Positions 4,904-27,142 are shown, counted from the first letter of the stretch. The stretch is 51,821 nt of DNA from Shigella phage pSf-1 (KC710998), one strand, 5' to 3'. The notes: a model not told the origin generated them from the sequence alone. Translations and numbers: made by a program.

Positions 4904-5309
4904 TAAAGGCGATTATCTGGAGTTTTACGAAAGAGATCCGACGGATACGCTAAAAGAGGAATCACACCAGATTGGGGCGTTTCAATGGTTAACTTATGCT
5001 CATCCTGAATTTCTTGCCTGGCATACGAAAAATGAGGGAGAAAAGGGTATCGCTACCGCAATGATGGATCAGCAAGCTGGACTCGTTAAGGGCGTAAGTG
5101 ATTTTATCATCCTGATTGGATTAAAAGGCCGTTACCCATTCGCGGCTATTGAGATGAAACGCGTCAATAAGTCTGGCAAGGGCAAGGCTTCACCAGTCAG
5201 CAAGGAGCAAAAAGCCTTCTTGCGCCGTGTGCGTGAGCTTGGCGGATTCGCTGCCGTAACATACGGATATAAGCAATTCATGATCGCGGTAGAATACATG
5301 ATGAAATAG
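4890..5309 (+). CDS. VRR-NUC domain nuclease (PD-(D/E)xK)
   Basis: KGVSDFIIL...IEMKR motif pattern typical of VRR-NUC; ATG 4890 with AAGGA RBS. Confidence 0.6.
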   Translation: MAITDKGDYLEFYERDPTDTLKEESHQIGAFQWLTYAHPEFLAWHTKNEGEKGIATAMMDQQAGLVKGVSDFIILIGLKGRYPFAAIEMKRVNKSGKGKASPVSKEQKAFLRRVRELGGFAAVTYGYKQFMIAVEYMMK

Positions 5310-5349
5310 CACTTTTTGTTAAAACAGGCGCGAAGGATTGCGCCATAAT
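5306..5349 (+). promoter_or_regulatory. conserved promoter cassette (ATAGCACTTTTTGTTAAAAC + hairpin spacer + CATAAT)
   Basis: motif begins at stop codon TAG of upstream gene; spacer GGCGCGAAGGATTGCGCC is an inverted repeat. Confidence 0.55.
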
Positions 5350-5383
5350 AACACCAGTTCAACAAGCAACAGGTAATTAAGAA

Positions 5384-6085
5384 ATGAGCAAAGAAACCGA
5401 AGTGACATTTGAACAAATAGAACGCGAAACATTCATTGGCAATGCTCTTGCTACTGGTGGTCATTACCAGGCTGTTAAACCAAATCAATATTTCAAAGTG
5501 ACTGGCAACCGCTATAACGGAAGCAATACGCCGGACGTTGTGCGCGATTTGTGGTCTACGCCGTCTGAGCTTGTCGAATGGATGGAAAGCGAATACGGTG
5601 ATTATGACATCGACGCGGCGGCAAGCAAAGAAAATGCTGTATGTGAAAAATTCTACAGCAAGGAAACAAATTGTTTAAAGCGTTGGTGGGGTAGTAATAA
5701 GCATATATGGCTGAATCCACCGTATAGCAATATTACGCCATTTGTTAAGAAGGCGATTGAGCAAATGGAGCACAACAATCAGATCGACATTCTGTTACCT
5801 TGCGACACATCAACAGGATGGTTTTATGAAGCGCAGCAGCGCGCAGCGGAAATCATCTGGATCACTGGCGAAGTTTACCAGGAGGATGGAACAGAATATT
5901 CCCGCACCGGACGCCTGGCGTTTACTTCCGCGCTAACAGGTAAACCAGTGCAGGGAAACAACAAAGGAAGCGTTATTTTCATCATGCGCGAACTTAAAGA
6001 AGGTGAGCAGCAGAAAACGCGATACGTTAAAATCAGCGACATTTGCCCTTCGGTGGCAGACCGTCGCGCACGGAAACGGAGCTAA
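5384..6085 (+). CDS. dam: DNA N6-adenine methyltransferase (phage Dam-like)
   Basis: NPPY catalytic motif (WLNPPYSN), size about 233 aa. Confidence 0.7.
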   Translation: MSKETEVTFEQIERETFIGNALATGGHYQAVKPNQYFKVTGNRYNGSNTPDVVRDLWSTPSELVEWMESEYGDYDIDAAASKENAVCEKFYSKETNCLKRWWGSNKHIWLNPPYSNITPFVKKAIEQMEHNNQIDILLPCDTSTGWFYEAQQRAAEIIWITGEVYQEDGTEYSRTGRLAFTSALTGKPVQGNNKGSVIFIMRELKEGEQQKTRYVKISDICPSVADRRARKRS

Positions 6086-6088
6086 AAC

Positions 6089-6329
6089 CATGCAAAAAGA
6101 AAGAAGCGTTTATTTAAATGAAACTGGCGAATGGTTGTTATTTCGCGCTATGGTTTGCGAAGCGATTGATAAAAACGAGTTCGTAAAACCGCTATTAGGT
6201 TGCGATCCGTGGGAGTTTACAAGCGCGCTTGATATGAGTTTTGAGGAAACAAGAAAACTACCGCTTGAAAAATGGCATGAGCAGATCGGTAAAGACTTGC
6301 AAGAGTTTTACGAATCCGCGTCAAAATAG
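6089..6329 (+). CDS. hypothetical protein
   Basis: ATG 6089 with GGAG RBS; ends in TAG that is part of next promoter motif. Confidence 0.45.
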
Positions 6330-6370
6330 CACTTTTTGTTAAAACGCCCGGCCTTGTGTCGGGCATAATT
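6326..6370 (+). promoter_or_regulatory. conserved promoter cassette
   Basis: ATAGCACTTTTTGTTAAAAC + GCCCGGCCTTGTGTCGGGC hairpin + ATAATT. Confidence 0.55.
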
Positions 6371-6401
6371 TTTTCATCAAAACGAACAAGAGGAAAATAA
6401 A

Positions 6402-6581
6402 ATGGTTGTTTACGATCCACGCGCTTTTAAAATTGCTCAAGAAGTTTCACGCGAATCTGTTGCTGGCGGTTCGGTTAACGGCTATCAGTTTGATTGGTCG
6501 GCAGCAATGACCCTGCTTAAGGTTGCATATGGTCACGCGCCAATTGAAACAGCGGAGGAATATTATAAGCATGAAGGTTGA
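6402..6581 (+). CDS. hypothetical small protein (59 aa, below ORF-track cutoff)
   Basis: ATG 6402 with AGAGGA RBS immediately after promoter cassette and CATCAAAACGAAC leader. Confidence 0.4.
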   Translation: MVVYDPRAFKIAQEVSRESVAGGSVNGYQFDWSAAMTLLKVAYGHAPIETAEEYYKHEG

Positions 6582-6813
6582 ACAAGGTAGGCAGGCCGTA
6601 TGGGATCACGCAAAGGAGTGCGGGATCTCTGAAGACATAGCCAGGATAGCAAAATATTTTGATATTGCTGACATAAGCATTATCAGCGGCGACAAAATGA
6701 CATTTCTCAATGAACGACCGCGCAAGATGCATCGCGTACCAGCAATACCAACAAAGATTGATTTCAAAGAGGCTATGGCGAAAATTCGCGAGCCGCGCAA
6801 ATACTACAAATGA
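6571..6813 (+). CDS. hypothetical protein
   Basis: ATG 6571 with GGAGG RBS; track ORF 6523..6813. Confidence 0.45.
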   Translation: MKVEQGRQAVWDHAKECGISEDIARIAKYFDIADISIISGDKMTFLNERPRKMHRVPAIPTKIDFKEAMAKIREPRKYYK

Positions 6814-6911
6814 GGATTATTATCATGTGGCGTTTGTTACTTTTGCCCTTACCTGTTATGATGGCGACCTCTATTGTATACGTTGTCATAATGAGATAAG
6901 GAGAATTTTTG

Positions 6912-9543: not shown

Positions 9544-9588
9544 CAAATATACCGATACGAGATCGGGAGTTTTAACAAAAAGTGCTAT
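9544..9588 (-). promoter_or_regulatory. conserved promoter cassette (minus strand)
   Basis: reverse-complement motif GTTTTAACAAAAAGTGCTAT, 17 nt spacer with CCGAT/ATCGG inverted repeat, TATATT, CATCGAAACGAA leader. Confidence 0.55.
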
Positions 9589-9705
9589 TCAATACGCTTT
9601 ACAGTAACCAACAAAACGCCGTCCTCATCACACAAATTATGCTCTGATATATCAAACGCTCGCATGTCAGAATGAATGAGCGTTAACATTGCGTGCATGA
9701 AGTCG

Positions 9706-10113
9706 TCATGTGAGATTGAACTTACGGCGCAGAACTTCAATATTTTGTCTATTAGCATTTGACGTAAACAATTCTTCATCGCTCATTTCTCCGATCCTTA
9801 AAACATCCCTTACCCATTCGTTTTGCATACCTTCCAGACTGTAAAGTTCAAACGAGAAAGGTCGATTTGCAGACCCTTTCTTACACCAGAACTTTCCACC
9901 AACTCCATCAAGATAACCAGCGGTCATCATTCTTGCGCAAAACTCTTTTGAAACGGCGGTTGCAAACATTCTCGGCGTAAATCCTGCGGCCCTTGCGAGC
10001 CGCTCACATTCTCTATGCTGAAATATAAATTTTGCGATATGTTGACGTGTAAACCATTCGAATGACTCACACCAGCGATACAGATCCAAGATAAACAAAA
10101 TGTTACCTCCCAT
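9706..10113 (-). CDS. hypothetical protein
   Basis: ORF track; downstream of HNH gene in same operon. Confidence 0.35.
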   Translation of the reverse strand: MGGNILFILDLYRWCESFEWFTRQHIAKFIFQHRECERLARAAGFTPRMFATAVSKEFCARMMTAGYLDGVGGKFWCKKGSANRPFSFELYSLEGMQNEWVRDVLRIGEMSDEELFTSNANRQNIEVLRRKFNLT

Positions 10114-10615
10114 GATTGCAGTGATATTTTAGTTCGTTTTCTTTTGATCTTCTTGCGCAAGCCGCATCAAATATAGTTTTAAAATATCCAATACAAAATG
10201 TTTTTCCTAAAACTCCTATTTGTGCATAATACAGTCCATCTTTAGTTATTGTAACCCCAGTTAATCCAGTTTTGTTTCTTTTGTTTTTTGATAAGTTTTT
10301 TTGATTATCTTTCTTTCTAACAAGTCTTAGATTTTCTATCCTGTTGTCGTCGCGAATGTGGTTAATGTGATCAATCTCATATCCTTCTAGTATAGCGCCG
10401 TTATGCATTTCCCATATTATCCGATGCGCCAAAAATCTCCTTTTATTTATGTTTAATAATATATAACCAGATTCTAAATCCTTACATCCTGCAATCTTAC
10501 CAGAATATTGAGTGTTACATTTGCTCATTATTCTTTCGCATGAGAAGTGGCTTAATGGCCTGGTGCGCCATATAAGCGCACCATTTGAATATGTAAAATA
10601 ATCATGCCAATTCAT
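10103..10615 (-). CDS. HNH homing endonuclease with AP2-like DNA-binding domain
   Basis: HNH motif EIDHINHIRDDNRIENLRLV...N; AP2-like segment GVTITKDGLYYAQIGVLGKTFCIGYF; GGGGTAA RBS. Confidence 0.65.
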   Translation of the reverse strand: MNWHDYFTYSNGALIWRTRPLSHFSCERIMSKCNTQYSGKIAGCKDLESGYILLNINKRRFLAHRIIWEMHNGAILEGYEIDHINHIRDDNRIENLRLVRKKDNQKNLSKNKRNKTGLTGVTITKDGLYYAQIGVLGKTFCIGYFKTIFDAACARRSKENELKYHCNHGR

Positions 10616-10619: not shown

Positions 10620-12203
10620 TTACCCCAGCAATGTTGGATTTACGAAAACAACGCCATTAATCACGCAAATATAGTTTCTTTCCTCAAGCATCGGAAGCAG
10701 TTGCGTTTCCATTCGCTTCATTACTCCAGCCTGACCAACAAACGGCTTAACTTTTCGTGCTGCCTCATATATAGCGCGAACATTCAATATCCCCTTATTA
10801 GCCTTGCCGTGTCGAGTAATGATCTCGATTAGTTTACCCATTTCAGCATCATCACCAGCGTAGCCAGAAGCGTTGGCGGCGCTAATGTATGTTTTGCTCA
10901 ACTCGCTAAACATCAGTAGTGCTTCCTGAACGGTTTCAACCTCAATCTCTTTCGACTTTTGAGGGTATCCGCCAGGGTTAAACCAATTGCGGATAGTGTG
11001 CAAAACCGAAGCAATCCTGATCACCTGCTTATCCATTTTTCCAAGCGCACCGCGCAGCATTGTATGCGAATACTTTCCGCCATCGGCAAGGTGCGGTTCC
11101 ATTTCCTGACGAGCCATGTTAAGAACTCGCATTGCTGATTTGCTGATCTTAAGCTGGATGTTTGATTCACTCATGATGTTATGGATCAGCTTAAAATATT
11201 GACTTTTCAGTTCTCCATCAACAGGCTCATAAGTCGAATCACCGTTATCATCAACAAACTTTCGACGACCTAAAAATGATTCCTCACGCACAAGCAAATA
11301 ACGCTCACTTACACCGATACCGCGCGATCCTGCATCCATGATGGCATTGATTGTTTCATCCTGGGCAATTACCGCCATACAGCCAAGAGCTTTAAAACTC
11401 ATATTGTTGTCAGCGTTTGCACGAGCTATAGAAACATGACCGTGATCCCATGCTTTTAATACAAGTTCGCTGTTGGTTTTACGTTCACTATTGGCATATG
11501 TCAGACCTAAAAGGCTGTTAATACTCGTTGCCTCGTCTGAAATTACAGCAAAGTTACCCTGGCGATTATTGATTCTTGCAAGTCCTTCCGGCGTGGTGTC
11601 GGACACAGGGAAAACTATGTCACACATCTTTTCCAGTTTTTCTTCCAGATCTTCTTTCTCCTGGTACAGAGATTCCATATCAGCGCCGGAGCGCTCGCTT
11701 TTCATCTCTTTTGCAAGACCTGCCAACTTTGCCTGAATCTTTTTTCTTTCCTTCTTTCGCTGATCGTTAATTCTTTCCACTTCTGCAACCATTGGAGCAA
11801 GTGCCAAGCTGTTAACGGCAGATTTACCAGTTGATGGAGGCTGGCTTGTAACAACGTACAGAGCGGTTGGTTGATCCGTTCCGTGATACTCAACAGTGAA
11901 GCGTCCAAGCATTGCAGCAGACACGCATCCGATAAAATGCATATATGCCGATGATTCAGGGAACTGAACTGATCGAGCAATGTTGCGCGCCAACTTGCCA
12001 ACAATATCAACATCATTGCCAAGAGAAATTACAGGGTAGCGATCGTTTCCGTTATTAACATCATTAACCTCACCCCAAAAGCTGGACGATTGACGGTATC
12101 CGTTTGCCTGAATGGACACGCGCACCGGAGACAATCCTTGTGCATCAGCTAATTCGATAATTTGTTTTGGTGTTAGTTTGTTGGTTTCAAACGAAAAATT
12201 CAT
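10620..12203 (-). CDS. DUF3987-like P-loop ATPase (putative replicative primase-helicase-associated protein)
   Basis: Walker A-like PPSTGKS, Walker B-like AVISDEAT; start at MNFSFETNK (ATG 12203, AAAGGAG RBS) downstream of promoter cassette. Confidence 0.5.
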   Translation of the reverse strand: MNFSFETNKLTPKQIIELADAQGLSPVRVSIQANGYRQSSSFWGEVNDVNNGNDRYPVISLGNDVDIVGKLARNIARSVQFPESSAYMHFIGCVSAAMLGRFTVEYHGTDQPTALYVVTSQPPSTGKSAVNSLALAPMVAEVERINDQRKKERKKIQAKLAGLAKEMKSERSGADMESLYQEKEDLEEKLEKMCDIVFPVSDTTPEGLARINNRQGNFAVISDEATSINSLLGLTYANSERKTNSELVLKAWDHGHVSIARANADNNMSFKALGCMAVIAQDETINAIMDAGSRGIGVSERYLLVREESFLGRRKFVDDNGDSTYEPVDGELKSQYFKLIHNIMSESNIQLKISKSAMRVLNMARQEMEPHLADGGKYSHTMLRGALGKMDKQVIRIASVLHTIRNWFNPGGYPQKSKEIEVETVQEALLMFSELSKTYISAANASGYAGDDAEMGKLIEIITRHGKANKGILNVRAIYEAARKVKPFVGQAGVMKRMETQLLPMLEERNYICVINGVVFVNPTLLG

Positions 12204-12230
12204 TGGTGATAACTCCTTTTTGATGCGGCA

Positions 12231-12274
12231 ATAATACCGCACCAATGCTACCCGCATTTAACAAAAAATGCTAT
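12231..12274 (-). promoter_or_regulatory. conserved promoter cassette (minus strand, variant ATAGCATTTTTTGTTAAATG)
   Basis: motif + 19 nt spacer + TATTAT upstream of DUF3987 gene. Confidence 0.5.
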
Positions 12275-12487
12275 TTGATCCGCTCTATGCTAACTAAGAT
12301 TTTTTCTGGTTCCTTTGCACTATGGCAATGCGCGGTTACAGAATCAACAAAATCAAAGTAAAGTGATTTGTGATATGAGAATCCAATCAGCCACCCAACC
12401 ATCGTTTTCTTTATTGGCCTGACTATATCGCATGATTGAAGGTTTTTGTTGCTGAATGAGTCACCTTATAGCGATATTCAGCCTTGA

Positions 12488-12904: not shown

Positions 12905-12949
12905 GATTATGCCAGGTTTTGCACCTGGCGTTTTAACAAAAAGTGCTAT
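12905..12949 (-). promoter_or_regulatory. conserved promoter cassette (minus strand)
   Basis: 44-nt core identical to the plus-strand cassette at 17701..17744 (includes hairpin GCCAGGTGCAAAACCTGGC). Confidence 0.55.
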
Positions 12950-13655
12950 TTTGCGTTTGCTTCAAAGACGGCGCGAGCAAAACCGCGCGGTGTGAGGGAG
13001 CGGATCATCTTTGTGCGAGATGATTTTCCGCCAGTTTTGGCCCAACCAGGATTATCCTTGTCATCCTCTTTAGGAAGGATTGTTGCGCGCGGAGGAATAA
13101 CAAATCCGTTTCCAGTCCAAAGGCATGTTTTCTTAAAGTACCGATCCCGCGCCGGAATAATATCAGGGAAGTCGGGATGCTTATCATCTTCCGGCAGATA
13201 GCAGCATAATCGCACGGATGGAACGTATAATCAGGCTTACGCCATAACGTTGACAGCTTGCCTACAGGATTTTCGATCATGTAAGGAACGCCGAAATAAT
13301 CAGCGATATGCGCCGCGATTCTGCAAGTGTCGGCGGCCTCATCCTGGAACGCTGGATTCTCAAGGCGTTTTTTGGTCCAATGGCGAGATCCGCTATTTGC
13401 AAGGTCAGTGCACGGCGGAAATGCCATAATGAAATCAGGCTTGCCCCAATTTTCAAGTTTTGCGGTATATTTGAATAGCTCATCAATCCACACATTAACG
13501 TAAAAAATATTATCATGGATTATGCGCACTGATTGGTAGTCGCCATGATCTGCATCATCGTAATTAAAGCAAATGCATTTATATCCAGCATCAGCCCAAT
13601 CTTTAACGGCTTTACCAGATCCATCAAACAAAGAGAATATTAAACCTTTATACAT
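12946..13655 (-). CDS. C5-cytosine DNA methyltransferase-like protein, apparently frameshifted
   Basis: motif I LFDGSG, motif IV FPPCTDLANSG (PC dipeptide), motif VI ENPVG; coding continues in another frame (track ORFs 13005..13655 and 12946..13215). Confidence 0.45.
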
Positions 13656-14273: not shown

Positions 14274-14303
14274 TATGCAATCCTCATTATATTTGGTGTG
14301 ATA

Positions 14304-14346
14304 ACTATACCAGGTTTGAGAAATATTGTTTAGCAATTCGTGCTAT
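14304..14346 (-). promoter_or_regulatory. conserved promoter cassette (minus strand, variant ATAGCACGAATTGCTAAAC + TATAGT)
   Basis: same variant upstream half as cassettes at 19381 and 21896. Confidence 0.5.
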
Positions 14347-14447
14347 CAGTTGAAATAGCTATGGCGCTTTGCTCGCTTGCCTTCTCCGCCATAATGATCA
14401 TTTGCAACAGCTACCATCCAGGAATTATGGAATATTATTAGCTTCAT

Positions 14448-14954: not shown

Positions 14955-14998
14955 AATATACCAATCAGAGGCGCATCGGTTTTAACAAAAAGTGCTAT
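14955..14998 (-). promoter_or_regulatory. conserved promoter cassette (minus strand)
   Basis: motif + spacer, TATATT enclosed by 8-bp inverted repeat CGATGCGC/GCGCATCG. Confidence 0.55.
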
Positions 14999-15285
14999 TC
15001 AACAACAGATCCAGTTAAAGAGATAAGTGCTCTTGTGATCTTGTGTCTGCGATACTGACGCGCAACAACCGGAAGATTTTCACCGCTTTGATGACCGAAG
15101 CAGATCGGCAACTCACCCTCAAGAGAGCGGAAGCCGCCAAATTCAAGATCCCGCACTGGATTTGAGCGCCACGCTTCAATAAATCCGCGTTCGTCACGCG
15201 TGATATAGCGGTATATGTTAGGGAGGGGCAATTGTATCCCCTCAAAATCCACGGTATCGGTATAGCTGTAAAACTTAGAACTCAT
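14995..15285 (-). CDS. hypothetical protein
   Basis: start at MSSKFYSY overlapping stop of upstream small gene; track ORF 14995..15402. Confidence 0.4.
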   Translation of the reverse strand: MSSKFYSYTDTVDFEGIQLPLPNIYRYITRDERGFIEAWRSNPVRDLEFGGFRSLEGELPICFGHQSGENLPVVARQYRRHKITRALISLTGSVVE

Positions 15286-15427
15286 AATCAACAACTCCAA
15301 ACTCGTTGACGATTTGCGCCTTATAGAAGCCGCCATTTTTCGCAAGGTTGTAGCATGCCGCCACAGTTTCAAATTCGCGCACTTCCGGCTGGCTGTTTTC
15401 ATGTTCCCAGGTAATCAGAGTAACCAT
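15275..15427 (-). CDS. hypothetical small protein (50 aa)
   Basis: ATG after conserved leader CATCGACAACGAAAGCGAGGA; MVTLITWEHENSQPEVREFETVAACYNLAKNGGFYKAQIVNEFGVVDYEF. Confidence 0.4.
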   Translation of the reverse strand: MVTLITWEHENSQPEVREFETVAACYNLAKNGGFYKAQIVNEFGVVDYEF

Positions 15428-15460: not shown

Positions 15461-15504
15461 AATGTACAGGAATACGAGGATTGAGTTTTAACAAAAAGTG
15501 CTAT
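15461..15504 (-). promoter_or_regulatory. conserved promoter cassette (minus strand)
   Basis: motif + 18 nt + TACATT + CATCGACAACGA leader. Confidence 0.55.
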
Positions 15505-15771
15505 TTAGTCCAGGAGTTCGATTTCGCGCTCGCCAGTTAACGGATCTTTGATCCAGAATCCGAGCGCCTCACCGTAAATACCGCCATAGAATCCAAGCGC
15601 CGACAGATCCTCACCTTTAACAAATACCAGATCCCCGCTACGGCTTACGTGAGATACGTTAACGATAACCGGAAAGGTGCGATCCTTAAATGCAGGCCGC
15701 ATGGCGTAACACCCGTTATTGAGCAAACGTGCTTTGCGCTTAACTGGAATAGGTGCATTGATTCGCGCCAT
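15505..15771 (-). CDS. hypothetical protein
   Basis: track ORF 15505..15810, start moved to MARINAPIP. Confidence 0.4.
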   Translation of the reverse strand: MARINAPIPVKRKARLLNNGCYAMRPAFKDRTFPVIVNVSHVSRSGDLVFVKGEDLSALGFYGGIYGEALGFWIKDPLTGEREIELLD

Positions 15772-15784
15772 CTTTATTTCTCCT

Positions 15785-16030
15785 TCATTGTTGATCGTGT
15801 TTAACGGCAATCAGAACACCACAGGACTCGTTAATGAATTTTGCCATTCGCTTATCATCACCAGCAGGGATTAGCGCATTACACTCGCGTTTGCTACTGA
15901 ATACCGTCACTTTATGGAATGATGCGAACGGCATCGACGGGAACTCTACTGTTTGCGTCAAGATCCGCAATCCCATCTTTTTGGCCCTTACCTGGGCCTC
16001 AGCGAGTTCAAAATCCACTTCATTAATCAT
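15785..16030 (-). CDS. hypothetical protein
   Basis: ORF track. Confidence 0.4.
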   Translation of the reverse strand: MINEVDFELAEAQVRAKKMGLRILTQTVEFPSMPFASFHKVTVFSSKRECNALIPAGDDKRMAKFINESCGVLIAVKHDQQ

Positions 16031-16337: not shown

Positions 16338-16381
16338 AATGTACCCGATCAGGATGATTCAGTTTTAACAAAAAGTGCTAT
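16338..16381 (-). promoter_or_regulatory. conserved promoter cassette (minus strand)
   Basis: motif + 18 nt + TACATT + CATCGAAACGAG leader. Confidence 0.55.
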
Positions 16382-16974
16382 TTCTCAACTGGCGATTATT
16401 CCAACTATTCCATTAATCAGGAATAACAAGAATAACTCATTCGCGATCACCTGGATTGTGAGACTTTGAGTTTGGTCAATTTTAATCAAGTGATTAACTT
16501 TTTGTGTGGAGGGGATAGAGAAACGCGGCCCTCTTGCGTCCTTTCCGGCAATCCTGGCGCGCGCAATTGTTATCTTCTGTTATCGCTGTTATGCGTGTTA
16601 TTCCGGCGTGGAATCGCATAACAAAAAATAACAAGAAAAATCCATATAACATACTAAAAAATAAGGATTATTTATTTATATGTATCTATAAATTATTATC
16701 TGTTATGTGTGTTATGTGGGCGTATTGATACCAGATGTATTTTGGTGATTGTATGTGGTTGTGTGTTGGCTTGTATGTATATATGGGGTGGGGCGTATCC
16801 GCGCATTTTTAGATAACACGCAAAAACAACATTGATTTATAAGGAAAAGAACATGAATTTTGTTTCGTTCTTGAAACACAACATTGAAAAACTGCCAATA
16901 ACAATTAAAAACAGTTGACACGCCAGGAATGGTAAATGATAATGCAGCCACTGAATCACGAGGGGGGATAAAGC
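16382..16974. repeat. noncoding AT-rich island with TGTTAT/ATAACA iterons and TG-rich repeats (candidate origin or regulatory hub)
   Basis: four direct TGTTAT copies at 9-10 bp phasing (16568-16601), three ATAACA copies (16618-16651), TGTTATG x2 (16701-16715), GTGATTGT/TGTATGT repeats; no ORF of 60 aa or more. Confidence 0.6.
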
Positions 16975-17292: not shown

Positions 17293-17445
17293 CGAAAGCA
17301 AAGCGCCAGGTTGCTGAGTCAATGCTTAAAGTCTCACCAAGCCTAGCGAACTACTCGCCAGATGAATATGAAACACTTGCTAAGGCGATCGCAGATTTTC
17401 ACGCGATCATTAAAGAAACATACCTTAACGATGAGGAACAATAAA

Positions 17446-17694
17446 ATGAGCAAACTTACGCTTGATGAACTGATGGAAAAAATTGATGAAGTGGGCTTTA
17501 ACAAGCTGGTTGATTTCCACTTGACCGCATGTGAAATCACCGCGCAGGAGTTTAGCGACATGCTATCTGATGCGAGCGAGATTTACACAAGCCTATGCGA
17601 AAGAGAAATCAAAGTCATTGAAATTGAGATGCCTGGAGATCCGGTATTCGCAAGGCTTGTGGCTGCATTCGATGAGGAGAATGTTGGACTCTGA
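17446..17694 (+). CDS. hypothetical protein
   Basis: ATG 17446 with GAGGAA RBS; track ORF 17362..17694. Confidence 0.45.
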   Translation: MSKLTLDELMEKIDEVGFNKLVDFHLTACEITAQEFSDMLSDASEIYTSLCEREIKVIEIEMPGDPVFARLVAAFDEENVGL

Positions 17695-17700: not shown

Positions 17701-17745
17701 ATAGCACTTTTTGTTAAAACGCCAGGTGCAAAACCTGGCATAATA
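17701..17745 (+). promoter_or_regulatory. conserved promoter cassette
   Basis: ATAGCACTTTTTGTTAAAAC + GCCAGGTGCAAAACCTGGC hairpin + ATAATA + CATCGAAACGAG leader. Confidence 0.55.
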
Positions 17746-17977: not shown

Positions 17978-18163
17978 ATGAAAACGAAATTAGTCCATAA
18001 ATCAGAAATCAAGATCGGCGATACTGTGATTCACAACGGTGAGCTTAGAACGGTTGGCAAAGAGTCAATAAGCCACGATGAATTTATGGGGATCTTGTTG
18101 TTCGGTGACTCTTATCGTCTTGGTTACAAGATGGTTGAGCTTGTGGAAGAGGTAAAATTCTAA
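17978..18163 (+). CDS. hypothetical protein
   Basis: ORF track; AGGTGAG RBS. Confidence 0.45.
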   Translation: MKTKLVHKSEIKIGDTVIHNGELRTVGKESISHDEFMGILLFGDSYRLGYKMVELVEEVKF

Positions 18164-18208
18164 ATAGCACTTTTTGTTAAAACTCGAAAACGATAACCAG
18201 GCATAATA
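18164..18208 (+). promoter_or_regulatory. conserved promoter cassette
   Basis: motif + 19 nt + ATAATA. Confidence 0.55.
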
Positions 18209-19231: not shown

Positions 19232-19384
19232 ATGGCTACCTGGATTTTGCTGATTCTTATGATTGATGGCGGCGTTGACCATATCGAAATGAATAGCCAG
19301 CAATCTTGCATTGAGGCACGAGAGCAGATCAAGAACAACAACAGGTTTTATGCGTACACTCACACGCTATGTATTAAGAAATAG
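19232..19384 (+). CDS. small membrane protein (50 aa)
   Basis: MATWILLILMIDGG... hydrophobic N-terminus; GAGGTGAGAG RBS; stop TAG lies in next promoter motif. Confidence 0.35.
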   Translation: MATWILLILMIDGGVDHIEMNSQQSCIEAREQIKNNNRFYAYTHTLCIKK

Positions 19385-19423
19385 CACGAATTGTTAAAAC
19401 TCAAATGTGGGGCCAGGTATAAT
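19381..19423 (+). promoter_or_regulatory. conserved promoter cassette (variant ATAGCACGAATTGTTAAAAC + TATAAT)
   Basis: TATAAT lies in loop of GGCC...GGCC inverted repeat. Confidence 0.55.
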
Positions 19424-19453
19424 GGCCTCACTTTCAACGAAGGGGATAAAACG

Positions 19454-19684: not shown

Positions 19685-19892
19685 GCGCGTTAAGCACAAG
19701 TTTATTGATAATCATGGCGATGCACTTGAGGTATATAAGTTCGGCGATCGCGTGTTTATTGATGGCACGTTTGAAGGTGGGCGCAGGCCGGATTTTAGAT
19801 CGATACTCACCATTGACCAGGTGCGCAAGCTGGCGGATAAGTTAAATGATCTGGCAGATGAAATCGAATACAAGCAAATTCATTTTAATTGA
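19671..19892 (+). CDS. hypothetical protein
   Basis: ORF track; GAGGAAG RBS. Confidence 0.45.
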   Translation: METNKRVKHKFIDNHGDALEVYKFGDRVFIDGTFEGGRRPDFRSILTIDQVRKLADKLNDLADEIEYKQIHFN

Positions 19893-19903
19893 TAGGTTTG
19901 ATA

Positions 19904-20443
19904 ATGAAAAAATACGAATTTGAACTTTGGGGCAGCAAATACCATTTTTCCACTAGCAAGCCGATTGTTATCGTTGACCTGGACGGAACGTTATCAGACG
20001 GAACGCATCGCTTGCACCTGCTTCCGACAGAAGATTTGCACCTTACAGAAAGCTGGGCTGAGTTCAATAAGGCGGCTGTTGGCGATTCGCCGATTAAGAG
20101 CACTGTTGCAGTGGTTAACGGTTTGTGGATGTCAGGATTTGCCATCGTTATCCTGACTGGACGCAGCGATGAAGTTGCGATGGATACATGTAAATGGATT
20201 GGCGAGAATGGCATCAAATACGACGCGTTAATCATGCGCCGCAAGGAAGACAACCGCAAAGATACGATCATCAAAGAAGAAGTATTGCGAGCTATCGGAC
20301 TGGAAAACATTGTGTGCGCCTTTGATGATTCGCCTAACGTGGTTAAGCACTTCCGCAGCCTGGGAATCACAACCTATCAGGTCACGGAATACGACAAGCC
20401 ACATAATCATATCCAATCGCATGGCGTGGAGGAATTGAAATGA
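19904..20443 (+). CDS. HAD-superfamily phosphatase (polynucleotide 3'-phosphatase-like)
   Basis: HAD motif I IVDLDGTL (DxDGT); size about 180 aa. Confidence 0.55.
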   Translation: MKKYEFELWGSKYHFSTSKPIVIVDLDGTLSDGTHRLHLLPTEDLHLTESWAEFNKAAVGDSPIKSTVAVVNGLWMSGFAIVILTGRSDEVAMDTCKWIGENGIKYDALIMRRKEDNRKDTIIKEEVLRAIGLENIVCAFDDSPNVVKHFRSLGITTYQVTEYDKPHNHIQSHGVEELK

Positions 20444-20601
20444 CCTGGTTACTTTTAATCTTTGTCACAAGTTACAACTCCGCCGCTATTGAATCGCAAG
20501 AGTTCCACGGCGAATCAAGGTGTCAGGAAGCACGAAAACAAGTTGTTCTCCACATGTCAGATAGTGGGAAAGATGTAACAGCGCTATGCGTTCGTAAGTA
20601 G
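20440..20601 (+). CDS. small protein with N-terminal hydrophobic segment (53 aa)
   Basis: ATGA overlap with phosphatase stop; stop TAG lies in next promoter motif. Confidence 0.3.
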   Translation: MTWLLLIFVTSYNSAAIESQEFHGESRCQEARKQVVLHMSDSGKDVTALCVRK

Positions 20602-20641
20602 CACTTTTTGCAAAAATAGATTGTCGGGCTTGCGGTATAGT
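20598..20641 (+). promoter_or_regulatory. conserved promoter cassette (variant GTAGCACTTTTTGCAAAAAT + TATAGT)
   Basis: TATAGT in loop of GGGCTT/AAGCCC inverted repeat; CCATCGACAACAAACGAGGA leader. Confidence 0.5.
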
Positions 20642-21114: not shown

Positions 21115-21308
21115 TTCTTACTATAGCGCATTCACGCAGTGCGCTATGTTGAGATAACAACATGAGATCATGAAGATGCGAAACTTCGAAAAAATCGTAT
21201 CCAAAAAGAAGCGATACAGCTACCACGAGCACCAAGAGATGAATCAACGCTATCGCAATAAGCGCCAGCGCAAAGGTAAACATTCCAGTAAACATGGAGA
21301 AAATCAAT

Positions 21309-21899
21309 ATGAAACGCGACATTATCATTCTTAACGGGCCGCCAGGAGTTGGCAAAGATACGCTTGCGGCATACTTAACGGGCCATCGTTACGCAGCGGT
21401 TAAAGCGTCATTTAAACAGCCTATGTTCGATATTGCATTCTCCATGCTTGGCGTTTACCGATATGACGAGTTCATTGATCTGTATAACGACCGCGAGCAG
21501 AAAGAAAAGCCTCAAGCAATCTTGCAAGGTAAGTCGCCGCGACAATTCATGATCTGGATTAGTGAAGAAGTCATGAAGCCAGCTTTTGGCAAGCAATATT
21601 TCGGAAATCGCATGGTTGAGCAAGTACACGAGATGTACAGAGATTTGGCTGTTGTAATTAGTGATGGCGGATTCCCTGAAGAAATCAAGCCGCTCGTTAA
21701 GGCAGGCCATGAGGTGCACATTTGCCGACTGCATCGCGAAGGCTTCACGTTTGATGGCGATTCACGAAACTATATTGACCTGAGCGGATACCATCACCGA
21801 GTCAATCATTACGACTTCACAATGATTGATGGCGAGCCAGAAAAGACTGTTGAAGAGATCATCAAAACGGTGCAGTGGAAACACACAAAGATTGAATAG
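21309..21899 (+). CDS. P-loop nucleotide/polynucleotide kinase
   Basis: Walker A GPPGVGKDT near N-terminus; start ATG 21309 with GGAG RBS (track ORF from 21294). Confidence 0.55.
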   Translation: MKRDIIILNGPPGVGKDTLAAYLTGHRYAAVKASFKQPMFDIAFSMLGVYRYDEFIDLYNDREQKEKPQAILQGKSPRQFMIWISEEVMKPAFGKQYFGNRMVEQVHEMYRDLAVVISDGGFPEEIKPLVKAGHEVHICRLHREGFTFDGDSRNYIDLSGYHHRVNHYDFTMIDGEPEKTVEEIIKTVQWKHTKIE

Positions 21900-21939
21900 C
21901 ACGAATTGCTAAAAGCGGGGCGCAATGCCTCGCTATAAT
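21896..21939 (+). promoter_or_regulatory. conserved promoter cassette (variant ATAGCACGAATTGCTAAAAG + TATAAT)
   Basis: TAG of kinase stop codon inside motif. Confidence 0.55.
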
Positions 21940-22950: not shown

Positions 22951-23238
22951 ATGGCTAAAAGCAATCGTAAAATGTTGATTAACGCATTCGAAAAGGCGGC
23001 GCTTGAGCGTGGTTGGAATGACTCATTTCACACGGCAAACTGTATCCGCCGTTACGGATTCAAGAATTGCCGCTCATGGGCGCGTGAAATGGCTTCATGG
23101 TATGATCTTGATGCGCATTACCTTGATATGGATTGCGCCCTGGTTGAAATGATTGAGCAGGCCGCATTAGAGGATCGACCATTAACGCAATCTGATTTTG
23201 ACGATTTTGTTCGCGATGAAATCTATTACATGAGCTAA
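22951..23238 (+). CDS. hypothetical protein
   Basis: AAGGAGGAAA RBS preceded by UUCG-loop hairpin. Confidence 0.45.
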   Translation: MAKSNRKMLINAFEKAALERGWNDSFHTANCIRRYGFKNCRSWAREMASWYDLDAHYLDMDCALVEMIEQAALEDRPLTQSDFDDFVRDEIYYMS

Positions 23239-23280
23239 TAGCACTTTTTGTTAAAACTTCCGCGAGGGCATTTGTTAAAG
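23238..23280 (+). promoter_or_regulatory. conserved promoter cassette (with TAAAGT -10-like)
   Basis: motif overlaps TAA stop/TAG; CATTGAAGCGAAACAGAGGA leader. Confidence 0.5.
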
Positions 23281-23313
23281 TGTCCTCATTGAAGCGAAAC
23301 AGAGGAAATCAAA

Positions 23314-24595: not shown

Positions 24596-24737
24596 TTGCT
24601 CGTCATGTAGACAGAGTTTTGAATGTGAGGTTGAGGCGCGCGGAGAGCTTGAGGCGGCAGCAAGAGCAAAAGAGTTGTCCGGCGCTAATCAAGACACTCA
24701 CCAGTTTTCAATAGATCTTGTAAGGAAAATATCATGA
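24552..24737 (+). CDS. hypothetical Cys-containing protein
   Basis: ORF track; overlaps previous ORF, start uncertain. Confidence 0.3.
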   Translation: MKYKVRLTIRRMGRNCSSCRQSFECEVEARGELEAAARAKELSGANQDTHQFSIDLVRKIS

Positions 24738-24973
24738 GTTCTGTAATTATTGGTTTGGTTGCTTTAATCATTGGTGTTCTAATCGGCTTTGTCGCTGTAT
24801 CTTTCGTTGTGGCTGTTGGTGTTCGCTATAAGTCAAAAAAAGGTGAATTTGCTTTAGCGTTTTGGGATGAAGAGCAGAAAGTTTGGCAGGTTCGCGGTCA
24901 CTATTTATCAATCGGTGGCAGGATTCACAGCACTATGAAAACAAATCCAGAAAAAGTAAAATACAAGTATTGA
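24734..24973 (+). CDS. small membrane protein
   Basis: N-terminal TM helix VIIGLVALIIGVLIGFVAVSFVVAVGV; AAGGA RBS. Confidence 0.45.
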   Translation: MSSVIIGLVALIIGVLIGFVAVSFVVAVGVRYKSKKGEFALAFWDEEQKVWQVRGHYLSIGGRIHSTMKTNPEKVKYKY

Positions 24974-24980
24974 CCAACTA

Positions 24981-25002
24981 CCCGCCAAATGGCGGGTTTT
25001 TT
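24981..25002 (+). terminator. rho-independent terminator followed by TATAAT promoter-like element
   Basis: CCCGCC-aaat-GGCGGG + T6; TATAAT at about 25020. Confidence 0.55.
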
Positions 25003-25053
25003 ATTGCCTGCAATTTGTCTATAATGAGGCTTTGTTATAAAGGAGGGCGCATT

Positions 25054-25574
25054 ATGGCTAAAAACGTTGAGCCAGCAGTAAAGGCTTGCAATTTTAAAAA
25101 ACTATATAATAAGCAATATGGCGATATAGCAAAAATGACAAAGGCGCACAAGTACACGCCGGAACAGGTATTTGATCTGGCTGTTCGTTACTTTACGTGG
25201 GCTGAGGAAAACCATATACAGGCTGCGGAAACGGCATCCTTTCAGGGTGACGTATACGAAAGCAAGATTCACAAGCCGCGCGTGTTCACCTTAAACGGAT
25301 TCCGATTATTCGCTGGCCTTTCTGCCTCCGTACTTGAAAAATGGCGACGCGAGCAGGATTTAGCGATGTTATGGACTTTATCGACGGCGTTGTTTACGAG
25401 CAAAAATTCCAGCTTGCCGCAAACAATATTGTTAACGCCGGATTCATTGGTAAGGAGATCGGCATTGAAAAGCCAGCCACCGTTACCATTGAGAATAACA
25501 CAAGCGCCAGCGTTGACGCTGTAACGGCGGAGGAAGTCAAAGAGGCGGTAATTGACATTCTGGAGAAGATATAA
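25054..25574 (+). CDS. terminase small subunit (apparent frameshift near 25357)
   Basis: N-terminal part ...KPRVFTLNGFRLFAGLSASVLEKWRREQ in one frame, C-terminal part GFSDVMDFIDGVVYEQKFQLAANNIVNAGFIGKEIGIEKP in another (track ORFs 24883..25524 and 25341..25574); AAGGAGGG RBS. Confidence 0.55.
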
Positions 25575-27142
25575 TGCTGATTTGGGAAGACTTAACAGCG
25601 GCGCAAAAGCGCGCCGTTAAGGAAATGAGCGAATATTCATTCGAAAAGATGATCCGCATTTGGTTTCAACTTCTCCAGGGGCAAAGGTTCTTGGGAAACT
25701 GGCATTTCAGTTACCTATGCAGCGAAGTTGAAAAAATCATCAAAGGCGAGTCACAGAATGTAATTTTCAACATAACGCCAGGCAGTGGTAAAACAGAGAT
25801 ATTCTCGATCCACATGTCACCTTATGCGTCATTGAAAAGTAAGAAGGTGCGAAATCTTAATCTTTCGTTTAGTGATGGCCTTGTCCAGCAGAATAGCAAC
25901 CGCATCAAAGAGATTATTGGTTCTCCAGAATGGCAGGAGCTATGGCCTGGAAAGCTGGCAAAGGCGAGCGCAAAGGATTTGATTGTAACAGATGGCGGCA
26001 AGGTTAAATTACAAGTCAACTCGCGTTCTATTGGTGGTCAGGTTACTGGTCTGCGTGGCGGATACATGGACGATGGATTTACTGGTATGCTGGTTCTTGA
26101 TGATCCAGACAAACCGGATGACATGCTTTCTAAGGTGAAGCGCGAAGCCGGACACATGCGCCTAAAGAACACGGTGCGATCGCGTCGAATGAAAGACACT
26201 ACGCCAATTGTGATGGTTCAGCAACGTCTACACGTCAATGATTCAACGTGGTTCATGACAAACGGCGGTATGGGCGGCATCCAGTTTAAGGTGGTAAGTA
26301 TTCCGGCGCTCGTTACTAAGGAATACCGCGAAACGCTTCCTGATTGGTTAAAGCCTGAGTTTGATCGCGATGTTTTGTCCAGTAAGCCAGTGATGATTGA
26401 TGGTGTTGCTCATTATTCGTTCTGGCCTGCTAAGGAAAGCGCGGAGGAATTACTTGCACTTCGAAATGCTGATCCGTACACGTTCGCCAGTCAGTATCAG
26501 CAACAGCCTGTTGCGCTTGGTGGTAACGTGTTTAAAACAGAGTGGTTCCAGTATTACGGCAGCAGCGAGAAATGCACGCTACCAAAACCGGATCGCTTTG
26601 AATATACATTTATCACGGTTGATACCGCGCAGAAAACAGGTGAGCTTAACGACTACTCCGTGATCTGTTATTGGGGGATGTATAAAGATCGTGTCTACTT
26701 CATTGATGGCGTTCGCGGAAAATGGGAAGCACCGGACCTTGAGACGAATTTTGTTGCATTCGTTAATCAGTGCTGGAAGCGCAATAAAGAATGCGGAACG
26801 TTGCGAAGGATTCATGTTGAAGATAAATCATCTGGCACTGGCTTGATTCAGAGTGCAGCGAAAAAAATCATGATCAAGATCAATCCCGTTCAGCGCGATA
26901 AAGACAAGGTTACGCGAGCAATGGACGCAGCGCCAGTAATGCGCGCCGGACGCGTAGCACTTCCAGAATCCCATCCTATGCTGGCTGAGATACTAGCTGA
27001 AGTTGCGGCGTTTACATTCGATGATAGCCATCCTCATGATGATATTGTTGATAACATCATTGATGCGGTTAACATTGAAATGAACATGGCAGATGATCCG
27101 GTTGGAAGAATGAAAAAATTGGCAGGTTTGCGGAACAAATAG
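25574..27142 (+). CDS. terminase large subunit
   Basis: Walker A ITPGSGKTE, 522 aa, follows TerS. Confidence 0.7.
   Translation: MLIWEDLTAAQKRAVKEMSEYSFEKMIRIWFQLLQGQRFLGNWHFSYLCSEVEKIIKGESQNVIFNITPGSGKTEIFSIHMSPYASLKSKKVRNLNLSFSDGLVQQNSNRIKEIIGSPEWQELWPGKLAKASAKDLIVTDGGKVKLQVNSRSIGGQVTGLRGGYMDDGFTGMLVLDDPDKPDDMLSKVKREAGHMRLKNTVRSRRMKDTTPIVMVQQRLHVNDSTWFMTNGGMGGIQFKVVSIPALVTKEYRETLPDWLKPEFDRDVLSSKPVMIDGVAHYSFWPAKESAEELLALRNADPYTFASQYQQQPVALGGNVFKTEWFQYYGSSEKCTLPKPDRFEYTFITVDTAQKTGELNDYSVICYWGMYKDRVYFIDGVRGKWEAPDLETNFVAFVNQCWKRNKECGTLRRIHVEDKSSGTGLIQSAAKKIMIKINPVQRDKDKVTRAMDAAPVMRAGRVALPESHPMLAEILAEVAAFTFDDSHPHDDIVDNIIDAVNIEMNMADDPVGRMKKLAGLRNK

Follow-up and report, generated by a model that had tools for sequence, protein, structure and literature searches.

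The genes that precede the promoters of the early and replication regions of Shigella phage pSf-1 usually stop on a triplet inside a conserved 20-bp box, and this triplet is mostly TAG. The other genes use a TAA just before the box (offset -3 or -2, where 0 is the A of ATAGCAC) or a TAA within it (offset +14; positions 15-17). The box belongs to about 20 near-identical promoter units located between genes of the window, i.e., the whole analyzed stretch of 51,821 nucleotides (KC710998). The stop-in-box observation is confirmed as real, non-random, and conserved: 11-12 of the 17-18 docked genes of the window lie in the TAG frame (binomial p = 0.004-0.008 vs. 1/3). Probably, a standard promoter unit carrying a marbox for a host activator fills each gap, with the upstream genes docked on the stops of the box.

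The phage is T1-like (Drexlerviridae, Hanrivervirus), and the window is ~94% identical to phage herni. The heptamer ATAGCAC is present 18 times (5.6 expected), a number reached in 0 of 100 shuffles; the longer box TAGCACNNWTYGNYAAA, with at most one mismatch, has 21 copies, against 0.2 expected. ATAGCAC forms the 5' end of a 21-nt direct repeat published in 2024 for phage TLS, with the consensus aaATAGCACnnnTTGnTAAAA and no assigned function (German et al. 2024, PMC11447400); repeats were also given there for T1, Rtp, and Rogue1.

The box is asymmetric (ATAGCAC-nnW-TTGyTAAAAC) and placed at -50 to -31. It is followed by an 18-bp spacer, an extended -10 (G at -14, then TAtaaT), and a predicted start-site A. 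The distance from the first A of the box to the start of the -10 hexamer is exactly 38 nt in 520 of 591 copies (88%), which places the hexamer 20 bp after the end of TTGyTAAA. The G at -14 (position 36) is found in 85% of the copies, and a C49/A50 pair is conserved at the expected start site, predicted from this conservation. A -35 hexamer is absent, the box occupying the position of a class II activator site, and a generic sigma-70 scan of the window missed the box promoter sites. The start codons of the next genes lie ~75 nt from the box start, which leaves a leader of ~25 nt after the predicted start site. Within the box, position 1 (T) is conserved in 88% and position 2 (A) in 97% of the copies, and no copy departs from T, A, and A at +14 to +16, whether or not they serve as a stop. 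Judged by its sequence, the unit is thus a real promoter design, and the preliminary description of ATAGCAC as a promoter motif is borne out by the fixed -10, the G at -14, and the C-A start-site pair.

The published marbox definition, gcannwwntgnnaaa, matches the window 23 times (1.7 expected), and 20 of the 23 matches are the box. The marbox string GCAHWWWWTGYYAAA fits the main box type exactly. The box is in forward orientation and centered at about -40, within the class II range of -36 to -55. In E. coli micF, the marbox ACAGCACTGAATGTCAAAAC is followed by 18 bp and then TAGAAT, with the start site 51 nt from the box start; 15 of its 20 bases are identical in the phage box. The box is a zero-mismatch fit to the E. 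coli marbox, with precisely the geometry of the class II promoter of micF, which is new here. No AraC-family gene was found in the phage. Some observations count against a host activator: positions 1-2 of the box are conserved beyond the marbox requirement, the extended -10 might function without any activator, and about half of the copies show the dyad TAGCA-N5-TGCTA, while all these phages encode a Cro-type regulator. A screen of the Keio single knockouts with LL5, a TLS-like phage, reported that rob, marA, and soxS were not needed, but the redundancy of the three genes and a 20-fold plating cutoff weaken this result.

In the proposed explanation, one standard promoter unit would occupy each gene gap of the early and replication regions, and its box, a marbox by sequence, orientation, and spacing, would be the site of the monomeric AraC-family proteins MarA, SoxS, and Rob. 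Firing of the units by the host RNA polymerase with one of these proteins is the most likely reading. Because no spacer is left upstream, the preceding gene would run into the box and stop on a triplet supplied by it: the TAG at box positions 2-4 (about half of the junctions), a TAA from two A's before the box, or the TAA at box positions 15-17. The two uses would not interfere physically, since translation ends on the mRNA while the activator binds the DNA. The cost of sharing would be sequence freedom, with the DNA signal fixing the TAG. The excess of TAG may come from its being the first stop that cannot be lost, so that it would catch genes after stop loss, small indels, or fusion to the box. 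In the stop-free frame of the box, reading would continue through the whole promoter, and the +14 stop would be ruled out wherever a spacer hairpin is present. Finally, since the gene end is docked on the box and the box is a crossover point, the gene would travel as a clean module.

The preliminary description cited eight shared stops, and all check out, with every coordinate correct. In the unit 5306..5349(+), with box ATAGCACTTTTTGTTAAAAC, a hairpin spacer, and the -10 CATAAT, the TAG 5307-5309 ends the VRR-NUC gene 4857-5309, as in 44 of 48 homologous C-termini, and the next gene starts at 5384. The unit 6326..6369(+) also has a hairpin spacer and CATAAT; its TAG 6327-6329 is the stop of the ORF 6003-6329, whose homologues have stop offsets of +1, +7, -2, or -3. 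In the unit 19381..19424(+; box ATAGCACGAATTGTTAAAAC), the TAG 19382-19384 ends the 3' part of a gene starting at 18262 and frameshifted in the window (7/7 homologues alike), and homology with herni resumes 2 nt before the box. The polynucleotide kinase gene, made up of 19889-20443 and a frameshifted tail, has its stop at TAG 20599-20601; the herni kinase ends in gaaTAGcac. This stop stands, but the motif was misread: the variant box GTAGCACTTTTTGCAAAAAT of the unit 20598..20641(+; -10 TATAGT) begins with GTAGCAC. In the unit 21896..21939(+; box ATAGCACGAATTGCTAAAAG, -10 TATAAT), the TAG 21897-21899 is the stop of the ORF 21294-21899 (201 aa). The two TAA stops described as adjoining the motif differ slightly. 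That of the ORF 17978-18163, at 18161-18163, abuts the box of the unit 18164..18207(+); that of the ORF 22951-23238, at 23236-23238, shares the first A of the box of the unit 23238..23281(+), and the box TAG follows in frame, giving tandem stops. The eighth stop, TAG 27140-27142(+), does end the large terminase gene 25574-27142, but not at a standard cassette: the degenerate box ATAGCACGAATCGACAAACC (27139..27158, +) lacks a -10 at the standard spacing. The terL gene of Rtp ends on the TAG of an intact box, unlike terL of T1 and TLS.

"At least eight" was, however, an undercount. On the minus strand, four further TAG stops are shared. The TAG 9585-9587 of the unit 9545..9588(-) ends the ORF 9585-9779(-), and the TAG 12271-12273 ends the ORF 12271-12402(-; 7/7 homologues alike) at the unit 12231..12274(-; box ATAGCATTTTTTGTTAAATG, -10 TATTAT), ahead of the helicase gene 10620-12257(-). 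The unit 12906..12949(-), with a hairpin spacer, supplies the stop of the cytosine methylase gene (TAG 12946-12948); this gene, frameshifted in the window (13005-13655 and 12946-13215), ends on the box TAG in 28 of 32 homologues. The TAG 14995-14997 of the unit 14955..14998(-) ends the ORF 14995-15402(-; 135 aa). Likewise uncounted were TAA stops directly before the box: 15505-15507, ending the ORF 15505-15810(-) at the unit 15461..15504(-), where a relative has reached the -2 state via a 1-nt change in an A run, and 47319-47321, ending a 353-aa ORF (46260-47321) at the unit 47322..47365(+; variant box ACAGCACAAATAGCTAAACA). Homologues of this ORF use -3, +14, or +1; by its position, it may correspond to the RecE-like exonuclease genes of T1, TLS, and Rtp. 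A last such case is the unit ahead of the primase gene (2269..2312, -; box AAAGCACTAATTGCTAAAAA, 18-nt spacer, -10 TATCAT): the regulator gene 2296-2769(-) stops on the TAA 2296-2298 (box positions 15-17) inside the box at 2312(-), as in T1 gene ST23.

Other units show looser contacts or none. The unit ahead of a helicase gene (2783..2826, +; box ATAGCATTTTTTGTTAAACG) is divergent from the regulator gene, hence its TAG is used by no co-oriented upstream gene. At 14303..14346(-; box ATAGCACGAATTGCTAAACA), the TGA 14346-14348 overlaps the box by one base, in frame with the TAG; the upstream ORF has only 33 aa, and the gene call is uncertain. The first unit of the leftward early block is 16338..16381(-); going upstream from its box, one first meets a stop 6 nt away, the TGA of a 34-aa ORF that is an uncertain gene. 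The ORF 17362-17694 stops at a TGA 9 nt before the box of the unit 17701..17744(+; hairpin spacer), and homology with herni resumes 3 nt before this box. The unit 45790..45833(-), ahead of the ORF 45529-45759(-), has no docked upstream gene. Two copies lie antisense to the late operon, without stop use: 31368..31411(-), with a weak -10, between the ORFs 30985-31374 and 31458-32432 (counterparts: T1 15086(-) and TLS DR7), and 35129..35172(-), with a T1 copy at 18850(-).

The arrangement was surveyed in 1.25 Mb of related phages, comprising 293 independent junctions. The box TAG is the stop at 137 of them; counted per junction cluster, the offsets are +1 (137), -3 (32), +14 (28), and -2 (20), with no upstream ORF at 22; 85% of the upstream genes end inside the box or 3 nt from it. 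That gene ends are phased onto the motif is borne out, since 68% of the junctions are in the TAG frame (33% expected). The bias holds for upstream protein families (81/120; p = 3e-14 vs. one third), for ORFs of at least 80 aa (115/164), and for the annotated junctions of T1, TLS, Rtp, and herni (30/49). In herni, nine RefSeq CDS end on the box TAG, and nine of the ten TAG stops of the same region are box TAGs. The arrangement, whose conservation in homologous genomes had been proposed as a check, is kept down to 40-50% amino-acid identity, with occasional switches of stop state. Simple compaction alone would give one third per frame; the twofold TAG-frame excess is real, and what we infer is its cause.

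Where the TAG is not the stop, it is nevertheless retained in 43/51, 37/49, and 18/22 copies (76-84%), hence it belongs to the DNA signal, and the genes are docked onto it. The constraint on coding and signal sequence attributed earlier to compaction therefore exists but is mainly one-way: the signal fixes the codon and the gene pays. Accordingly, the last sense codon before the box TAG is limited to NAA or CGA (n = 137: AAA 80, GAA 35, CGA 9, CAA 6), and the last amino acid of docked genes is mostly Lys, Glu, or Gln. TAG is not the sole shared stop, as the TAA at -3/-2 and at box positions 15-17 also serve.

Compaction is also an incomplete account, because the box is in addition a recombination joint between gene cassettes. 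Three of the five replacement gaps relative to herni regain homology at most 3 nt from a box start. Between phages, homology breakpoints are concentrated at the box edges, a second new finding: 18 fall at -10 to +1 and five at +16 to +19, over a background of ~0.7 per bin. The units are thus crossover points for gene-cassette swaps between related phages. About a third of the units contain a strong GC hairpin (z < -2 in 32% of distinct spacers). As predicted before testing, the +14 stop does not occur with it (0/75 hairpin units vs. 23/167 others, p = 2e-4).

It is possible, although we doubt it, that the box is instead the operator of the phage's own regulator (2296..2769, -), a rival candidate box-binding protein with a Cro-type helix-turn-helix, acting as an activator or a stoperator-like repressor; the marbox likeness would then be a coincidence, and the sharing of stops would still follow from packing as a by-product. 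All T1-like phages searched have this regulator in conserved form (118 homologues, 823 phage records), and it has the all-alpha fold of Cro. Cro-type regulators typically bind dyads; the dyad TAGCA-N5-TGCTA, with a 10-bp distance between its half-sites, is present in about half of the boxes. In TLS, its gene has its own sigma-70 promoter, with a -10 overlapping that of the box promoter on the opposite strand, in a switch-like manner. The LL5 screen, which found no host regulator requirement, also fits, and the TLS authors themselves suggested stoperators or enhancer sites (PMC11447400). The best-conserved positions, however, break the dyad (C6 vs. T10, A16/A17 vs. A0), whereas the marbox accounts for every conserved position and the spacing is that of micF. 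Furthermore, the copies are almost always co-oriented with transcription, and 88% of them keep a fixed distance of 18 bp to the -10, which stoperators do not. The T4-like phage KP15 also has a complete unit, flanked by genes without relationship to those of T1-like phages.

That TAG and TAA are kept because they are stop codons, the box being a selected translational insulator in any frame ahead of the next promoter, is unlikely. Stops are indeed available in the box at +1 (TAG) and +14 (TAA), another TAA often arises at -3/-2, most upstream genes end in or next to the box, and -10 hexamers ending in ATAAT give a second in-frame TAA at positions 40-42 (seen at 5306). But one of the three frames is stop-free throughout the box, the TAG is nearly as frequent without gene use, including copies lacking an upstream gene, and the invariant T, A, and A coincide with the AAA element of the marbox. 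Also unlikely is a unit that works chiefly on the RNA, where a hairpin and a T-rich tail would form a terminator or 3'-end element of the upstream gene, the box being part of this element and not of a promoter. The T1 record annotates spacer hairpins as rho-independent terminators, a terminator scan of the window picked the spacers 6346-6364 and 9552-9566, strong hairpins are enriched, and hairpin units exclude the +14 stop. The tail, however, is the -10 hexamer, without a U run; the two thirds of units without a strong hairpin still keep box, spacing, and -10; the conserved G at -14 and the start-site A are promoter features; and terminator-like sites overall are not enriched in the window (26 vs. 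21.9 in shuffles). The hairpin is better seen as a terminator added inside a promoter, as in PeSLs (PMC2839356, PMC4122927). An artefact of mechanical ORF calling or assembly indels has a negligible probability, even if the window has frameshifts that herni lacks (helicase, portal, kinase, and methylase genes) and some of the upstream ORFs, such as those at 9585, 12271, and 19232, span only 43-64 aa. This candidate, under which the upstream ORFs would really end elsewhere, was rejected: the RefSeq annotations of herni, T1, TLS, and Rtp, made independently, give the same ends, the box TAG is the stop of genes with recognised domains (VRR-NUC, terminase, kinase), and long ORFs and protein families show the frame bias as well.

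The 21-nt repeats of TLS are the same element as the window box: they are oriented with transcription, lie ~76 nt ahead of start codons, and number about 18-21 copies per genome (PMC11447400). They were termed intergenic, their function was left an open question, and the words "stop codon" and "overlap" are absent from the text of that paper. Few promoters were found there, and the fixed -10, the marbox match, and the recombination joints were not reported (PMC11447400).

Among host promoters, those of class II controlled by MarA, SoxS, or Rob, e.g., micF, are the closest: the phage box fits both published consensus strings, is in forward orientation over the -35 position, is centered near -40, and lies 18 bp from the -10. 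In contrast to the host sites, which are degenerate, these are phage-borne, with ~20 near-consensus copies per 50 kb, and their T and A at box positions 1-2 vary less than those of the host consensus.

Among phages, the PeSL/PmSL cassettes of the T4 type are also recombination sites for cassette shuffling and flank small genes without known function, and the stem-loop of a PeSL is typically found between the -10 and the upstream promoter element, or else covers the -10, as here (Arbiol et al. 2010, PMC2839356; Comeau et al. 2014, PMC4122927). PeSLs have a normal -35/-10 pair or a Mot box, whereas here an activator-type box replaces the -35; unlike in PeSLs, a stop codon in a preferred frame lies inside the invariant box, and a strong stem-loop is present in only about one third of the units. 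The MotA-dependent middle promoters of T4 similarly combine a conserved box in place of the -35 with a good -10. The T4 Mot box, TGCTT, is 11-13 bp from the -10, vs. 20 bp for TTGyTAAA in this phage. To our knowledge, T1-like phages have no MotA or AsiA gene, and none was seen in a non-exhaustive search. The copy of the unit in KP15 is labelled "putative middle promoter" in its record. The stoperators of mycobacteriophage L5 likewise form a large set of asymmetric copies of a single short site that point along transcription, but they serve the repressor of a temperate phage and have no tie to promoter elements, whereas the phages considered here are virulent and 88% of the box copies lie exactly 18 bp from a -10.

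The ATAGCAC motif belongs to a known 21-nt direct repeat of phage TLS, aaATAGCACnnnTTGnTAAAA, and forms its 5' end (German et al. 2024, PMC11447400). There, 18 intergenic copies are oriented along transcription, ~76 nt ahead of start codons, and the same repeat is present in T1, Rtp and Rogue1 (PMC11447400). Just three standard promoters were found in that study; stoperators, enhancer sites or UP elements were proposed for the repeat, the function of which was left as an open question (PMC11447400). In the window, ATAGCAC occurs 18 times versus 5.6 expected, and aaATAGCACnnnTTGnTAAAA has 21 matches with at most one mismatch versus 0.2 expected. Relaxed matching yields 22 copies of the element, here called the box (20 bp, its first A being position 0). 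As in TLS, the copies follow transcription: 20 of the 22 are co-oriented with the downstream gene, the start codon of which mostly lies 71-82 nt, around 75 nt, past the first box position. The 21-nt element itself is already known. The text of the TLS paper, from which the terms "stop codon" and "overlap" are absent, contains neither the phasing of stops onto the box nor the complete layout of the promoter, the match to the marbox (the MarA/SoxS/Rob site) and the recombination role discussed below (PMC11447400).

The preliminary description had placed eight gene ends on or next to the motif, and all eight coordinates are right. The copy at 20598 reads GTAGCAC rather than ATAGCAC, and the one at 27139 does supply a TAG stop, but within a degenerate box lacking a properly spaced -10. 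Four further genes end on the box TAG (positions 1-3, offset +1) on the minus strand, at 9585, 12271, 12946 and 14995. A TAA directly ahead of the box is the gene end at 15505, 18161 and 47319, while the TAA at 23236 overlaps the first A of the box and is in frame with the box TAG. The phage regulator gene, 2296-2769(-), ends on a TAA within the 3' half of the 2312(-) box. Misplaced ORF boundaries could have produced such a pattern; however, the independent RefSeq gene calls of Escherichia phage herni (53 CDS) also give nine TAG-in-box ends, with three TAA at -3, one at -2 and one at +14. Of the ten TAG stops in the herni region, nine are box TAGs. The stop-in-box observation is confirmed.

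The window represents the genome of a T1-like siphovirus (Drexlerviridae, Tempevirinae, Hanrivervirus) and is ~94% identical to herni and related phages over most of its length. Relative to herni, frameshifts split the genes for the helicase (2793-4903), a cytosine methylase (12946-13655), the polynucleotide kinase (19889-20601) and the portal (27211-28490) into two ORFs each, so that some upstream ORFs look short in the window. These splits suggest indel errors of the assembly, or real pseudogenes. Among the phage database matches, about 20 records carrying the name "Campylobacter phage" show ~90% identity to this coliphage; they seem more likely to reflect contamination or a wrong host label than a phage that truly infects Campylobacter.

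The arrangement was quantified in 1.25 Mb of related phage DNA, comprising T1, TLS, Rtp, part of herni and ~120 IMG/VR stretches. A core pattern that left box positions 0-2 free and required a -10 gave 591 unique copies in 293 junction clusters, and the stop of the longest upstream ORF was taken as the gene end of each cluster. Stop-codon usage was taken from the herni annotation, as greedy gene calling was too crude and lost overlapping or frameshifted genes. The commonest offsets were +1 (137 clusters), -3 (32), +14 (28) and -2 (20), and 22 clusters had no upstream ORF; 85% of the upstream genes terminate inside the box or at most 3 nt away. Packing alone predicts one third of the ends per frame, whereas the TAG frame accounts for 168 of 246 (p = 6e-29). 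Counted by upstream protein family (n = 120), the frames of TAG, TAA(-3) and TAA(+14) hold 81, 23 and 16 families (p = 3e-14). The TAG frame is used in 30 of 49 cases in the four annotated genomes (p = 6e-5) and in 11-12 of 17-18 in the window alone (p < 0.01). The preliminary description had proposed conservation in homologous genomes as a check, and homologues with only 40-50% identity do keep the arrangement; the VRR-NUC gene, for example, ends this way in 44 of 48 cases. In some families, the junction switches among +1, +7, -2, -3 and +14, with 21 families being mixed.

The TAG is retained in 84%, 76% and 82% of the copies in which the preceding gene uses a different frame or there is none. 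Because it persists in copies that do not use it, the TAG is part of the DNA signal, onto which genes are docked; its conservation for termination was rejected on the same ground. The claim that the motif is part of a promoter and that gene ends are phased onto it is supported with this refinement, while that of a mutual constraint holds mainly in one direction: the box constrains the last codon, but the TAG is kept by the DNA signal, also where it is unused. The cost of the fixed TAG falls on the protein, via a restricted last sense codon (AAA 80, GAA 35, CGA 9 and CAA 6 in the 137 clusters). AAA, GAA and CAA are each one substitution from TAA, and single-base paths connect the junction states (TAAATAG versus TAATAG). 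For the excess of the TAG frame, we infer a three-part account. As the first stop that cannot be lost, the TAG would catch genes that have lost their stop, acquired small indels or become fused to a box. The TAA(-3) frame has no stop inside the box, and any slip there would read through the whole promoter. A stop at +14 would add five fixed residues and would clash with a hairpin downstream of the box.

Conservation downstream of the box shows the layout of a full putative promoter, in what is here called a unit. The -10 hexamer begins at position 38 in 520 of the 591 copies (88%), and the spacer is therefore 18 bp. A G at position 36, present in 85% of the copies, makes this an extended -10, and a conserved C-A at 49-50 places the predicted start site at position 50. 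TTGyTA was rejected as an ordinary -35, since its spacer would be 21 bp, and no -35 was found at 16-18 bp from the -10 of the units. A generic sigma-70 scan missed the units, in line with the three standard promoters of the TLS paper (PMC11447400), and generic promoter and terminator scans gave no enrichment over shuffles. Between 4500 and 24000, the window has fewer sigma-70-like sites than its shuffles (27 vs. 40 +/- 6.6), which may reflect avoidance of stray promoters. A near-consensus sigma-70 promoter (TTGACA, 17 nt, GATAAT) lies at 16915-16943(+), within the divergent region that precedes ORF 16975. It is probably the counterpart of TLS P01, and it would be an activator-independent entry point of early transcription. 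A search for literature on T1 transcription start data gave nothing useful. The regulator and helicase genes are divergent too (2770-2835). In units with a -10 ending in ATAAT, like that at 5307-5348, a second in-frame TAA lies 13 codons past the box TAG, so that read-through, for example in amber-suppressor hosts, would stop inside the promoter. Two box copies oppose the late structural operon, at 31368-31411(-) and 35129-35172(-), in the gaps ahead of the ORFs starting at 31458 and 35186. Antisense equivalents exist in T1, at 15086(-) and 18850(-), and in TLS (DR7); these copies may produce an antisense RNA or serve as a decoy site.

About one third of the distinct spacers contain a strong GC hairpin (z < -2 in 32%), and an MFE of -4 or lower is reached by 44% of the spacers vs. 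21% of shuffles. The T1 record annotates these same hairpins as rho-independent terminators. A ribosome halted at +14 would cover the spacer hairpin, a prediction set beforehand, and +14 stops were found in none of the 75 hairpin units vs. 23 of the 167 others (p = 2e-4). This exclusion indicates that the hairpin matters in the read-through RNA, and it explains part of the rarity of the +14 frame. At 5327-5344(-), the opposite strand carries first the spacer hairpin and then the box complement, a T-rich stretch (GTTTTAACAAAAAG); judging from this layout, hairpin units could stop antisense transcription as well.

The box itself matches the marbox. The marbox consensus GCAHWWWWTGYYAAA fits the main box type GCACTTTTTGTTAAA exactly, and the published form gcannwwntgnnaaa has 23 matches in the window versus 1.7 expected, 20 of which are the box; 20 of the 22 box copies fit without mismatch. 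In class II marbox promoters, the site is in forward orientation, overlaps the -35 and is centred between -36 and -55. The phage box is forward, covers the -35 position and, counted from the predicted start, has its centre at about -40. Read directly, the E. coli micF promoter, a proven member of this class, consists of ACAGCACTGAATGTCAAAAC, 18 bp and TAGAAT, with the annotated RNA start 51 nt from the box start. It shares with the phage unit the 18-bp distance between marbox and -10 and 15 of 20 bases. No paper linking the marbox to T1-like phages, or containing the box sequence, was found; the marbox match is new here.

A phage-encoded MarA-like protein was rejected as the binder: tblastn with approximate MarA and SoxS queries gave a best E of 0.2, in an ORF assigned to DUF7174 by Pfam, no AraC-type domain was detected in Pfam scans of 18 ORFs, and the fold of the conserved regulator is of the Cro type instead of the AraC type. 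With no AraC-family protein detected in the phage, the binder would be host MarA, SoxS or Rob. That Cro-fold regulator is itself a serious rival for the box. It is encoded by all T1-like phages searched, about half of the boxes contain a dyad, TAGCA-N5-TGCTA, and in TLS (35841-35909) the sigma-70 promoter of the regulator and the box promoter of the helicase share their -10 region on opposite strands, which looks like a transcriptional switch. However, the most conserved box positions are asymmetric (C6, T10, A15-17) and the copies are oriented with transcription, which suits a MarA-type protein bound as a monomer more than a dimer. In a Keio single-knockout screen with the TLS-like phage LL5, rob, marA and soxS were not reported; given the redundancy of the three genes and the cutoff of the screen, this is weak evidence against a host binder. 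Vibrio phage Vc1 carries the same units, so its supposed Vibrio host cannot separate a host from a phage factor. Furthermore, a complete T1-type unit (TAATAGCACTTTTTGTTAAAAC, 18 nt, TATAGT) was encountered at 10042-10087 in the first 50 kb, the part scanned, of the T4-like Klebsiella phage KP15 (NC_014036.1, 174 kb). The upstream gene ends in TAA-TAG, the flanking genes have no T1-like homologues, and a second, adjoining copy with a 1-nt deletion lies at ~10386-10450; both are annotated as "putative middle promoter". The position of this copy, between genes unrelated to those of T1-like phages, is suggestive of a host factor or of a mobile cassette. Overall, we consider the chances about even that T1-like phages wire ~20 promoters per genome to host MarA/SoxS/Rob through near-perfect class II marboxes, carried in mobile promoter-terminator cassettes with the first triplet of the box ending the preceding gene.

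Such a wiring to the host would let phage gene expression read the stress state of the cell (bile salts, oxidants, salicylate), and would answer what the 21-nt repeat does, a question that its describers listed as open (PMC11447400). A very common enteric phage family would be coupled to the regulon controlling multidrug efflux and porins, which would matter for phage therapy combined with antibiotics. The description of the repeats as intergenic holds only in part, and the majority of TAG stops in these genomes consist of bases of the putative promoters. This is a clean case of dual coding, in which dozens of unrelated proteins have their stop codon and final residue dictated by a DNA signal, and the box edge is a natural boundary for cutting, swapping and engineering gene cassettes. 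The analysis also yields a predicted start site and a concrete binder question, Rob/MarA/SoxS versus a Cro-type protein.

Between the window and herni, homology resumes at most 3 nt from the box start in three of the five replaced segments (17701, 19381, 20598). Over all loci, 18 distinct breakpoints fall at -10 to +1 of the box and five at +16 to +19, compared to a background of ~0.7 per 10-nt bin; this pile-up at its edges makes the box a crossover zone. The promoter-stem-loop cassettes of T4-type phages (PeSL) begin at the upstream stop codon, and their stem-loop usually separates the -35 from the -10 or covers the latter (PMC2839356, PMC4122927). The units share with them the upstream gene end (85% in the box or at most 3 nt away), the next start ~75 nt further and the mosaic boundaries of related genomes; a strong hairpin occurs in about one third of distinct spacers and may act as a terminator. 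PeSL cassettes have a sigma-70 -35/-10 pair and PmSL cassettes a Mot box, whereas the units lack a -35. The stoperators of phage L5, in comparison, are repressor sites independent of promoters, whereas the box is fixed 18 bp from a -10 in 88% of copies. In T4 middle promoters, the Mot box is located about 11-13 bp upstream of the -10, while the TTGyTAAA of the phage box ends 20 bp ahead of it, which sets the units apart from MotA-dependent promoters.
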